Shown here: piece after piece, positions 3,198 to 4,094 of the stretch
How positions within the stretch are numbered: position 1 is the stretch's first letter
Layout: each line of letters begins with the position of its first letter
IMG/VR virus record: IMGVR_UViG_2667527959_000007
DNA length: 4,425 nt
From: a virus
Taxonomy: Duplodnaviria > Heunggongvirae > Uroviricota > Caudoviricetes
Direction: 5' to 3' (one strand)
Notes under the pieces: generated by a model
Seen by the model: only the letters and a program-made list of their open reading frames with translations
Databases searched by the model: none
Told to the model about the DNA's origin: nothing
Made by a program: the position numbers and the translations under genes

Positions 3198-3226
3198 ATA
3201 ATACGATATGTACTTTTAGAATGCAA
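3198..3226 (-). promoter_or_regulatory. PR-like promoter driving cro, cII and the replication genes
   Basis: Minus strand: -35 TTGCAT (3226..3221), 17-bp spacer, -10 TATTAT (3203..3198). Predicted start near 3191, giving a short leader to the cro ribosome-binding site. Confidence 0.6.
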
Positions 3227-3273
3227 GCAAAAAATACATCTTGTGCATGGATGGTTTTAGTACAGAGCGTAAT
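3200..3273. promoter_or_regulatory. OR operator cluster: three candidate 15-bp sites (consensus ARTAC-N5-GTAYT)
   Basis: Sites at 3200-3214 (AATACGATATGTACT, overlapping PR -10 and spacer), 3233-3247 (AATACATCTTGTGCA, weaker) and 3259-3273 (AGTACAGAGCGTAAT, just upstream of the cI start, the OR3/PRM position). Centre-to-centre spacing is 33 and 26 bp. PRM itself could not be placed confidently. Confidence 0.4.
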
Positions 3274-3282
3274 AATAAGGGT

Positions 3283-3942
3283 ATGAAAATGAAATGGTAT
3301 GAACTGGCTAGATCCAGAATGAAAGAGCTCGGCATAACTCAAGAGAAGTTAGCTGAAGAGCTTGGTATGACGCAGGGTGGAATTGGTCACTGGTTGCGCG
3401 GATCTCGTCATCCATCTCTTGACGAGATTGGTGTGGTGTTTAAATACCTTGGTATTGATAACGTCTCATTCAACCACGACGGTACATTTTCACCTGTTGG
3501 CGAATACTCATCTGCCCCCGTTAAAAAACAATATGAGTACCCTGTTTTTTCTCATGTTCAGGCCGGGATGTTCTCGCCTGAGCTTAGAACCTTTACCAAA
3601 GGTGATGCGGAGAGATGGGTCAGCACAACCAAAAAAGCCAGTGATTGTGCGTTCTGGCTTGAAGTTGAAGGTAATTCCATGACCGCGCCAACAGGATCCA
3701 AGCCAAGCTTTCCTGACGGGATGTTAATTCTCGTTGACCCTGAGCAGGCTGTTGAGCCAGGTGATTTCTGCATAGCCAGACTTGGTGGTGACGAGTTTAC
3801 CTTCAAGAAACTGATCAGGGATAGCGGTCAGGTGTTCCTACAGCCACTAAACCCGCAATATCCAATGATTCCATGCAATGATAGCTGTTCCGTAGTAGGG
3901 AAAGTTATCGCCAGCCAGTGGCCTGAAGAGACATTTAGTTAA
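3283..3942 (+). CDS. cI: cI-type repressor with a C-terminal LexA-like self-cleaving (S24) domain
   Basis: C-terminal about 140 aa ([38 protein letters not shown]...GNSMTAP...FTFKKL...WPEETFS) contains the Ala-Gly cleavage site and the Ser and Lys catalytic dyad, and is nearly identical to lambda cI by recall. The N-terminal about 80 aa is a different helix-turn-helix domain. Start ATG at 3283 or 3289 (AAGGG at 3277-3281 favours 3289); the TTG at 3241 is rejected. Stop TAA at 3940-3942. Confidence 0.9.
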
Positions 3943-3972
3943 CAGCCTCACAACTCTAAAACACACAACAAT

Positions 3973-4002
3973 AACCCGACCTTAGCGTCGGGTTTTCTTT
4001 TT
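3973..4002 (+). terminator. Rho-independent terminator downstream of cI
   Basis: AACCCGAC (3973-3980), loop CTTAGC, GTCGGGTT (3987-3994), followed by TTTTCTTTTT. No rex-like genes intervene between cI and PL. Confidence 0.6.
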
Positions 4003-4021
4003 CCAAAATATAAACCCATTA

Positions 4022-4094
4022 AATACAAAGCGTTATAAAAAACTAATTATATTTAGAACATTTTGTATTGACTCGATAAAGTACAAATCGTACT
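4022..4094. promoter_or_regulatory. OL operator cluster: three candidate 15-bp sites of the same family as OR
   Basis: Sites at 4022-4036 (AATACAAAGCGTTAT), 4055-4069 (AGAACATTTTGTATT) and 4080-4094 (AGTACAAATCGTACT, the best palindrome, 6 of 7 symmetric pairs, overlapping the PL spacer and -10). The last is 13 of 15 identical to the PR-proximal OR site. Confidence 0.4.

Follow-up and report, generated by a model that had tools for sequence, protein, structure and literature searches.

Six 15-bp sites at the early promoters of a P22-like phage correspond to the putative OR and OL operators of Shiga-toxin phage VT2-Sakai

We identify six related 15-bp sites in this phage, with a probability of about 0.9, as OR1-3 and OL1-3 of an immunity module of the VT2-Sakai (Sp5)/phage-L type. 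They are almost certainly the sites at which the CI and Cro proteins of this phage bind. What the analysis shows directly is the sites themselves, where they lie, how far they are conserved, the recognition helix common to CI and Cro, and the domain composition. We infer the binding by the cognate proteins, as well as an order of affinity among the sites, the activation of PRM and the choice of cooperating sites. The operators themselves are already known: they are annotated as putative in the related Shiga-toxin phage VT2-Sakai and in Stx1 and Stx2-II phages and, judged by sequence, their identification from these near-identical annotated phages is unambiguous.

The window (the whole stretch of DNA analysed, 4425 bp) contains a lambdoid immunity region in the order cro, OR, cI, terminator, OL, nutL and N. 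The cI and cro genes are divergently transcribed and lie on either side of OR. The sites occur between these divergent genes (cro encoding an HTH_3 protein and cI a protein with HTH_3 and Peptidase_S24 domains), and sites of the same kind form a further cluster, OL, at PL, upstream of nutL and N and only 80 bp past cI. Lambda-type nutL, nutR and N accompany the module, whose genome is P22-like (Lederbergvirus) and without stx. The features are as follows.

2956..3171, minus strand: cro, 71 aa, HTH_3 (Pfam), 70/71 residues identical to VT2-Sakai Cro
3198..3226, minus strand: PR, -35 TTGCAT (3226-3221), 17-bp spacer, -10 TATTAT (3203-3198), read from the sequence
3200..3214, AGTACATATCGTATT on the minus strand: OR1, exact match to the motif, over the PR spacer and -10
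3233..3247, AATACATCTTGTGCA: OR2, two mismatches, left half consensus and right half degenerate
3248..3276, plus strand: putative PRM, -35 TGGATG (3248-3253), -10 AATAAT (3271-3276), from the mapped AP005153 annotation and reading of the sequence
3259..3273, AGTACAGAGCGTAAT: OR3, one mismatch, within the spacer and -10 of the putative PRM
3289..3942, plus strand: cI repressor gene, 217 aa, HTH_3 N-terminal domain (non-lambda specificity) and Peptidase_S24 C-terminal domain (Pfam)
3973..3994, plus strand: intrinsic terminator after cI, separating cI from OL
4022..4036, AATACAAAGCGTTAT: OL3, two mismatches, an annotated site in AP000422 and AP005153, conserved among E. coli relatives
4055..4069, AGAACATTTTGTATT: OL2, one mismatch, its 3' end reaching two bases into the PL -35, conserved in relatives including L009
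4068..4096, plus strand: PL, TTGACT-17-TACTAT, found by promoter scan and equivalent to the annotated leftward promoter of AP000422
4080..4094, AGTACAAATCGTACT: OL1, exact match, over the PL spacer and -10
4152-4166: boxB
4339: start of N

The motif ARTACNNNNNGTAYT has two exact matches in the 4425-bp window, at 3200-3214 (AATACGATATGTACT) and 4080-4094 (AGTACAAATCGTACT), and the reverse complement of the first is identical to the second at 13 of 15 positions. If up to two mismatches are allowed, the window contains 11 matches compared with 4.1 expected, and eight of the 11 fall in the two intergenic regions. These eight include four weaker copies, starting at 3233, 3259, 4022 and 4055, together with one further match in OR (3271) and one in OL (4039). 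The last two are not conserved across relatives and were rejected as operators and treated as chance matches. The right halves of OR2 and OL3 are poor. From centre to centre, neighbouring sites lie 33 and 26 bp apart in OR and 25 and 33 bp apart in OL. An inverted-repeat search of the window with a 6-nt seed reported nothing further and missed the operators, because their arms are only 5 bp long.

The original prediction was of six ARTAC-type sites, three each in OR and OL, the best pair (3200-3214 and 4080-4094) being equivalently placed over the spacer and -10 of PR and PL. Both parts hold, with two exact and four weaker sites. At PR and PL alike the operator takes in the final 11 bp of the spacer and 4 bp at the start of the -10. 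In OR the related dyad-symmetric sites (3200, 3233 and 3259) overlap PR and PRM, with OR2 located upstream of the PR -35 and abutting the PRM -35. PR has its counterpart in the 'putative major rightward promoter' of AP000422 and AP005153. It scores 8/12, under the promoter-scan threshold, and its placement therefore rests on direct reading together with the AP000422 equivalent. The PRM assignment is a putative one, with a weak consensus match; the sigma-70 consensus match of PR is also weak.

All six sites carry the label 'putative operator' (17 bp each) in AP000422 and AP005153/4, OR1 and OR2 being so annotated in both AP005153 and AP000422. They are also listed as VT2-SA OR1-3 and OL1-3 (Table S1, PMC10742460), where OR3 is identical to that of the window. 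Every database annotation of these operators reads 'putative'. The likeness to VT2-Sakai extends to the positions of the six operators, to their half-sites (with the exception of one base in the OL3 right half, GTTAT in the window and GTTGT in VT2-Sakai) and to the PR, PRM and PL assignments, which are as annotated in AP000422 and AP005153. The differences concern the central bases at most sites and the inter-site DNA (the OR region is 88.8% identical). In addition, VT2-Sakai has approximately 1.5 kb of extra genes between cI and OL, compared with 80 bp in the window phage. The same type is present in the Stx1 and Stx2-II phages of E. coli O157:H7 Morioka V526 and in Nil2, 2851 and the PA (PST1) phages. 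In the literature searched, we found no experiment (footprint, gel shift or reporter assay) that used cognate CI or Cro. The only gel shifts on these operator sequences in that literature were performed with the non-cognate lambda CI, with a micromolar apparent Kd.

The DNA-reading residues of CI and Cro are of the VT2-Sakai type. CI is identical to VT2-Sakai CI at 209/217 residues, including residues 1-44 and the HTH, while the single change in Cro lies outside its HTH. The recognition helices of CI and Cro are near-identical (TQGGIGHW and TQGAIGHW, respectively; that is, TQG(G/A)IGHW), as is expected if both proteins read the same sites. Cro belongs to the HTH_3 family, is all-helical and is related to CI; it matches P22 C2 (E=0.006) and the 434 repressor (E ~0.1) and presumably does not have the lambda Cro fold. 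The CI N-terminal domain aligns weakly with residues 24-67 of lambda CI (1lli, E=0.0036). Residues 82-216, on the other hand, share approximately 98% identity with the C-terminal domain of lambda CI, so dimerisation, dimer-dimer cooperativity and RecA-stimulated self-cleavage would be expected as in lambda.

Independent support for the motif comes from other genomes rather than from counts within the window, which are partly circular, the same six sites having served to define the motif. Both the position and the sequence of the sites are conserved in 17 loci and five further lineages. In a comparison of 14 OR and 12 OL sequences, all distinct, the half-sites hardly vary, whereas the centres and the inter-site DNA do. 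In OR, 28/30 half-site columns are invariant compared with 36/62 (58%) of the remaining non-coding columns (Fisher p=5e-4), and in OL the corresponding values are 26/30 and 19/66 (29%; Fisher p=1e-7). The OR1 half-sites are invariant in 13/14 distinct relatives and those of OL1 in 12/12 distinct OL sequences, although part of the conservation in their right halves may reflect promoter function since the right half overlaps the -10 hexamer. OR3 is conserved in relatives, and both the position of OR2 and its GTGCA deviation are kept in the E. coli relatives and in L009. This comparative footprint refines the half-site to ARTACA, with an invariant GT at positions 11-12. OL remains with PL whether the gap between cI and OL is 80 bp or approximately 1.6 kb. 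In phiKp_30, where cI is destroyed, OR2, OR3 and OL2 have base changes at half-site positions that are invariant elsewhere.

The motif also recurs in other genera, next to repressors whose N-terminal domains are 50-82% identical: L009 (82%), ST64T, Klebsiella ST340-VIM1phi10.1, Vibrio H2 and Pseudomonas phiPSA1. The usual layout in these lineages is 32-34 bp between OR1 and OR2 and 25-26 bp between OR2 and OR3. OL1 and OL2 are 25-26 bp apart in the E. coli loci and in L009, ST64T and phiPSA1, for which OL sites could be located. Phages of Escherichia, Salmonella, Klebsiella, Vibrio and Pseudomonas have a similar OR layout beside repressor domains of 50-60% identity. g341c has another helix, TKGAVSHW, as well as other outer half-site bases (TATAC or GATAC) and another OR layout (24 and 35 bp). 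Gene context, the shared recognition helix, conservation and the way in which the motif tracks the DNA-binding domain thus all support the original reading of these sites as operators for cI and Cro. A contig scan with the CI N-terminal domain gave 79 loci, four of which are close relatives; the others, generic HTH proteins from Firmicutes and others with 30-45% identity, were left out. We also considered mEp010 (42% N-terminal identity), but it has another gene layout upstream of cI, with no such sites there, and is not informative.

It is conceivable, but rather improbable, that only OR1, OL1, OR3 and OL2 are functional and that OR2 (3233) and OL3 (4022) have been kept for another reason (as PRM UP/-35 context, for example) or as remnants. 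Each has two mismatches, all in the right half. The right half of OR2 abuts a conserved GCATGGATGG containing the putative PRM -35, and at the OL3 position L009 has only a poor match, at another distance. However, the consensus left half of OR2 and its distances to OR1 and OR3 are kept as far as the Vibrio and Pseudomonas phages, and OL3 is invariant at 8/10 half-site positions in the E. coli set. There is also a precedent in lambda, whose middle operator site is weak and dependent on cooperativity.

A different explanation would be that the conserved blocks serve the promoter or host factors (as -10, -35, UP, IHF or Fis elements) and that the palindrome is incidental to AT-rich promoter DNA. 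OR1 and OL1 do overlap the -10 hexamers and OL2 the PL -35, and both intergenic regions have a GC content of 33%. Against this, the 15-bp dyad is present six times, also outside the promoter hexamers (OR2 and OL3), and shifts with the repressor recognition helix in g341c; moreover, lambda has similar promoter positions with unrelated operator sequences. We used as a local control dinucleotide-preserving shuffles (n=2000) restricted to the AT-rich intergenic DNA at 3172-3288 and 3943-4110. These composition-preserving shuffles lead to an expectation of 0.31 and 0.39 matches, respectively, compared with four observed in each region, and the fraction of the 2000 shuffles reaching four was <=0.0005. 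AT-richness is therefore ruled out as an explanation of the motif in both regions, and we regard the promoter-element explanation as very unlikely. Chance similarity of the sites, to which the circularity mentioned above lends some room, can be dismissed, since there are two exact matches compared with 0.01 expected from whole-window shuffles and the comparative data already refute it.

The immunity is not that of lambda. The gene order (cro-OR-cI...OL-N) is the same, and each operator likewise has three sites, of which O1 covers the early promoter; OR2 is again located upstream of the PRM -35 and OR3 inside PRM. The operators, however, are unrelated: ARTACA...GTAYT in the window and TATCACCGC-type half-sites in lambda. 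A search for half-sites of the TATCACCGC type across the window found none in OR or OL, and only two matches with one mismatch, both in coding DNA and at chance level. We rejected lambda immunity (imm-lambda) on the grounds that neither the lambda operator half-sites nor the lambda CI N-terminal domain is present. This agrees with the earlier suggestion that the operators are not those of lambda and have a distinct specificity. Also unlike lambda, the PR -35 of the window lies between OR1 and OR2 without overlapping OR2. Finally, the spacings of the window (33/26 bp in OR, 25/33 bp in OL) differ from those of lambda, which are 24 and 23 bp in OR and 24 and 20 bp in OL.

If all six sites are operators, dimers of CI (through the HTH N-terminal domain) and of Cro would read the half-site ARTACA, two copies of which would form an imperfect palindrome about a central base. 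OR1 and OL1, each with two good halves, cover the spacer and -10 of PR and PL, and RNA polymerase would therefore be kept off the early promoters when repressor is bound. OR2, with one good half, would have its centre approximately 43 bp upstream of the predicted PRM start, where lambda CI activates PRM. OR3 lies inside PRM, which would be shut off at high CI levels or on Cro binding. Cooperativity of the lambda type between OR1 and OR2 is not assured, because they are 33 bp apart and not 24 bp as in lambda. If contacts of the lambda type form at approximately 25 bp, for example, the pairs would be OR2-OR3 and OL1-OL2, leaving OR1 to act on its own or by a same-face contact over three turns. 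Given a conserved spacing that departs from that of lambda and a C-terminal domain approximately 98% identical to that of lambda CI, there is a small but real chance that the cooperative wiring differs from that of lambda. If so, a very common E. coli prophage immunity type would provide a natural test of spacing against repressor cooperativity. The divergence in conserved spacing despite the near-identical cooperativity domain does not make this a new kind of system.

The 434 and P22 c2 repressors, for which DNA complexes have been solved, share the HTH_3 fold class and dyad-symmetric operators in threes. They differ in half-site sequence and spacing, and the similarity is marginal. The 434 operator is ACAA-N6-TTGT (14 bp) and that of P22 an 18-bp site. 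In the Salmonella phage ST64T, the N-terminal domain of the C2 protein is 53% identical, with the recognition helix TQGAIGHW, and there are six ARTAC-N5-GTAYT sites spaced at 34/26 bp in OR and 30/25 bp in OL. The ST64T/phage L immC (c2-cro) system belongs to another host genus, with a DNA-binding domain only approximately 50% identical. According to the epsilon34 paper, the closest N-terminal relatives of its repressor are those of L, VT2-Sa and Nil2, and its authors proposed WTACRAWWTGTAT operators for the epsilon34/g341c group.

The chief value of these results is as a check, the repressor-operator system having been recognised correctly from raw sequence by the original prediction. In the literature searched the operators are only predicted, and the comparative footprint therefore adds independent support as well as the refined half-site. 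This type of immunity is of medical relevance: the Stx2a phage Sp5/VT2-Sakai and many O157:H7 Stx phages have it as their switch, and the ease of prophage induction is set by repressor-operator affinity. An OR of this type is found in 776 of 5426 complete E. coli genomes (14%).

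The window is a lambdoid early region of 4425 bp whose orientation is reversed with respect to the usual lambda map. Its features are as follows:

59-1510, minus strand: DnaB-type helicase
1485-2384, minus strand: O-like initiator, containing two 35-bp iterons
2558-2836, minus strand: cII (Phage_CII family)
2916-2930, minus strand: nutR boxB, GCCCTGAAAAAGGGC
2956-3171, minus strand: cro (71 aa, HTH_3)
3289-3942, plus strand: cI (217 aa, HTH_3 and Peptidase_S24)
3973-3994, plus strand: terminator
4152-4166, plus strand: nutL boxB, lambda-type
4339, plus strand: start of N, lambda-like

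Among database records, non-Stx coliphages come closest, led by vB_EcoP-683R2 at 99.6% with Louie, Dewey and 720R6 after it. A sizeable set of Stx phages follows at 93% over cro-cI: VT2-Sakai, Nil2, 2851, the PA phages, and the Stx1 and Stx2-II phages of Morioka V526. The two direct repeats of 35 bp in the O-like replication gene (1897-1931 and 1963-1997; GTGGTAATTTGCTGGTAATCTGCTGGTAC...) are 94% identical and are the counterparts of 'ori iteron' features annotated in VT2-Sakai. Within the 5' end of cII and directed toward cI, TTGCTTGTAATTGC (2790-2803, plus strand) fits TTGC-N6-TTGC. A CII-binding site for the establishment promoter is expected here, and AP000422 annotates the sequence as one; it is the one match in the window, against 0.34 expected, which is not significant alone.

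The original prediction was a family of sites, ARTAC-N5-GTAYT, three each in OR and OL, acting as operators for the cI/Cro pair. Exact matches to ARTACNNNNNGTAYT occur in the window only at 3200-3214 (OR1) and 4080-4094 (OL1), with 0.01 expected; motif search and alignment confirm that the two, the first read on the minus strand, are identical at 13 of 15 positions, as had been claimed. With up to two mismatches the window contains 11 matches (4.1 expected), among them all six proposed sites (3200, 3233 and 3259 in OR; 4022, 4055 and 4080 in OL). Because the motif is AT-rich and both intergenic regions are 33% GC, the OR and OL regions were shuffled separately. The expected numbers are then 0.31 and 0.39, while 4 are observed in each, a number reached in a fraction of at most 0.0005 of 2000 shuffles for each region. 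The fourth match (3271 in OR, 4039 in OL) is a non-conserved extra. PR, by direct reading of the sequence, is TTGCAT-17-TATTAT (3226-3198, minus strand) and PL is TTGACT-17-TACTAT (4068-4096). In both promoters the operator spans the last 11 bp of the spacer and runs 4 bp into the -10, which bears out the equivalent placement proposed for the pair.

Seventeen loci with this OR were gathered from phages, E. coli chromosomes and one-genome-per-species contigs. The six sites recur at unchanged relative positions, the exception being an 82%-identical Enterobacteriaceae relative (L009), in which the OL3 position is a poor match. Alignment of the 14 distinct OR and 12 distinct OL sequences, taking ten half-site positions per site, shows that these positions are far more conserved than the remaining non-coding DNA.

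Invariant columns in the conservation alignments.
OR: half-site 28/30; other non-coding 36/62; Fisher p 5e-4
OL: half-site 26/30; other non-coding 19/66; Fisher p 1e-7

Variation is free in the central 3-5 bases of the sites and in the DNA between them. Deviations from the consensus that are specific to a given site are nevertheless kept (GTGCA in OR2, GTAAT in OR3, GTTRT in OL3, and AGAAC in OL2, which is ACAAC in three loci), and this pattern suggests graded affinities under selection. Read from the better half, each of the six sites starts with ARTACA and carries GT at positions 11-12; two good halves are seen in OR1 and OL1 alone. OL remains beside PL both where 80 bp separate it from cI, as in the window, and where inserted genes widen the distance to about 1.6 kb. 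Of 5426 complete E. coli genomes compared with 3150-3300, 776 carry this OR (including UTI89, 83972 and many O157:H7 strains), the majority of matches being the Sakai-type variant at about 88.8% identity.

The check suggested with the original prediction, a search for the motif beside homologous repressors in other genomes, is borne out in relatives reached by tblastn with the CI N-terminal domain.

Sites beside more distant repressors (N-terminal identity; recognition helix; OR sites and spacings; OL).
Enterobacteriaceae genome (L009): 82%; TQGGVGHW; AATACAATATGTACT, AATACATAACGTGCA, AGTACAAAGCGTAAT, 34 and 26 bp; two clear sites, 26 bp between
Salmonella phage ST64T C2 (L097): 53%; TQGAIGHW; three sites, 34 and 26 bp; three sites, 30 and 25 bp
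Klebsiella ST340-VIM1phi10.1 (L098): 52%; TQGGLGHW; three sites, 33 and 25 bp; one candidate match
Vibrio phage H2 (L099): 51%; SQSAIAHW; ATTAC-N5-GTAAT type, 32 and 26 bp; one site
Pseudomonas phiPSA1 (L100): 60% over 55 aa; TQGGVAHW; 32 and 26 bp; two sites, 25 bp between
g341c: 54%; TKGAVSHW; outer bases TATAC or GATAC, 24 and 35 bp; annotated binding sites

Four other genera, with repressor domains 50-60% identical, keep the TAC-N5-GTA dyad and an OR layout of 32-34 then 25-26 bp, whereas in g341c the spacings are swapped with respect to ST64T, the Klebsiella element, H2 and phiPSA1. The epsilon34 paper gives the L, VT2-Sa and Nil2 repressors as the closest N-terminal relatives of its own and proposes WTACRAWWTGTAT as operator. 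Judged from these comparisons, the motif follows the repressor DNA-binding domain.

From residue 82 to 216, CI is about 98% identical to the C-terminal domain of lambda CI (3bdn, 8gmu), including the context of the AG self-cleavage site. The N-terminal domain matches lambda's only weakly and lambda half-sites are absent from OR and OL; the operators are therefore not lambda's and the immunity is distinct, as was correctly predicted. CI and Cro share 35% identity over 60 residues and almost the same recognition helix (TQGGIGHW and TQGAIGHW, respectively). Compared with VT2-Sakai, Cro is identical at 70 of 71 residues and CI at 209 of 217, with residues 1-44, including the HTH, unchanged, so that the two phages should have the same immunity specificity. 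Among solved structures, Cro is nearest to PDB 28tn ('lambda repressor-like protein', E=2.4e-16, full length), with which it shares the C-terminal motif DDVFPP; P22 C2 and 434 repressor are marginal matches.

The sites, their placement and conservation, and the protein domains are directly observed, and the interpretation of the six sites as predicted CI/Cro operators is supported by independent comparative evidence (half-site conservation and the motif beside homologous repressors). On the lambda paradigm, CI dimers on OR1 and OL1 would keep RNA polymerase off PR and PL. The centre of OR2 is about 43 bp upstream of the predicted PRM start, a position from which CI would be able to activate PRM, and OR3, within PRM, could mediate negative autoregulation and be the likely first target of Cro. 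Induction would proceed by RecA-stimulated cleavage of the lambda-type C-terminal domain. Measured between centres, the OR sites of the window lie 33 and 26 bp apart and the OL sites 25 and 33 bp apart, against 24 and 23 bp (OR) and 24 and 20 bp (OL) for the lambda operators. Also in contrast to lambda, the -35 of PR falls in the interval from OR1 to OR2 without overlapping OR2.

These operators are already known: their annotation in near-identical immunity regions goes back to 1999-2003. AP000422 (VT2-Sakai, Miyamoto et al. 1999) includes the same six putative operators together with PR, PRM and PL. AP005153 (an Stx1 phage, Sato et al. 2003) carries 17-bp 'putative operator' features, three in OR and three in OL, those of OR mapping to window positions 3200-3216, 3232-3248 and 3258-3274. 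OR1-3 and OL1-3 of VT2-SA are given in Table S1 of PMC10742460 and are those of the window except for central bases and one base in the right half of OL3. Predicted OR1-3 and OL1-3 of Sakai-type (PST1) phages are also mentioned in PMC4587872, which cites Fattah et al. (2000). The binding experiments located on these sequences concern only the non-cognate lambda CI (apparent Kd micromolar). Neither cognate CI/Cro binding data nor operator strings as text were found in the literature open to searching, which seems to contain no measurement of cognate binding. What is of residual value is the conserved spacing, which is unlike that of lambda even though the cooperativity domain is nearly lambda's.

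Klebsiella phage phiKp_30 (L086, 900-1200) shares this cro and OR, but its cI breaks off after about 20 codons and it has lost OL3. Half-site positions that are invariant elsewhere are hit by single-base changes in OR2 (G to T), OR3 (T to C) and OL2 (A to G); the half-sites of OR1 and OL1 are unaltered. The phage looks like a virulent derivative and its operators look to be under relaxed or virulence-type selection; this single case is consistent with operator function.

The interval between cI and OL (3943-4021) is a hot-spot for inserted genes (loci L005, L085 and L087-L095). In the window it is 80 bp with only the terminator; elsewhere it is 0.9-1.6 kb long and encodes HicA/DUF1902 and DUF1828 proteins along with hypothetical genes. 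A seventh motif-like sequence is present in the Stx-type relatives and in several chromosomal ones, ATAACCAATTGTATT (variants ATAACCAAATGTATT and ATAACAAATTGTATT), 114 bp upstream of OL3 (L005 4767, L008 2542, L087 5341, L088/L089 5666, L091 5111, L092 5453, L094 4977, L095 5706). It is absent from the window, where the equivalent position falls within cI, and may be either an additional weak operator or a chance resemblance inside a conserved block. The contigs L007 and L008 are assigned to a 'Bacillota bacterium' MAG and a 'Segatella copri' MAG. Both have this coliphage immunity region (96-97% protein identity) and probably represent Enterobacteriaceae prophage contigs placed in the wrong bin.

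The nutL boxB hairpin (4152-4166, plus strand) is GCCCTGAAGAAGGGC; this and the nutR hairpin GCCCTGAAAAAGGGC are the lambda sequences, and the beginning of N resembles that of lambda N. Relatives of the VT2-Sakai type share this cro/cI but have another N, annotated as 933W/H-19B-like. Since the same cro/cI is joined to different N genes, the immunity module is a mosaic cassette. Immediately to the right of OL1, CATCAGCAGGACGC (4102-4115) is a block common to all lineages and is likely to be a recombination joint.
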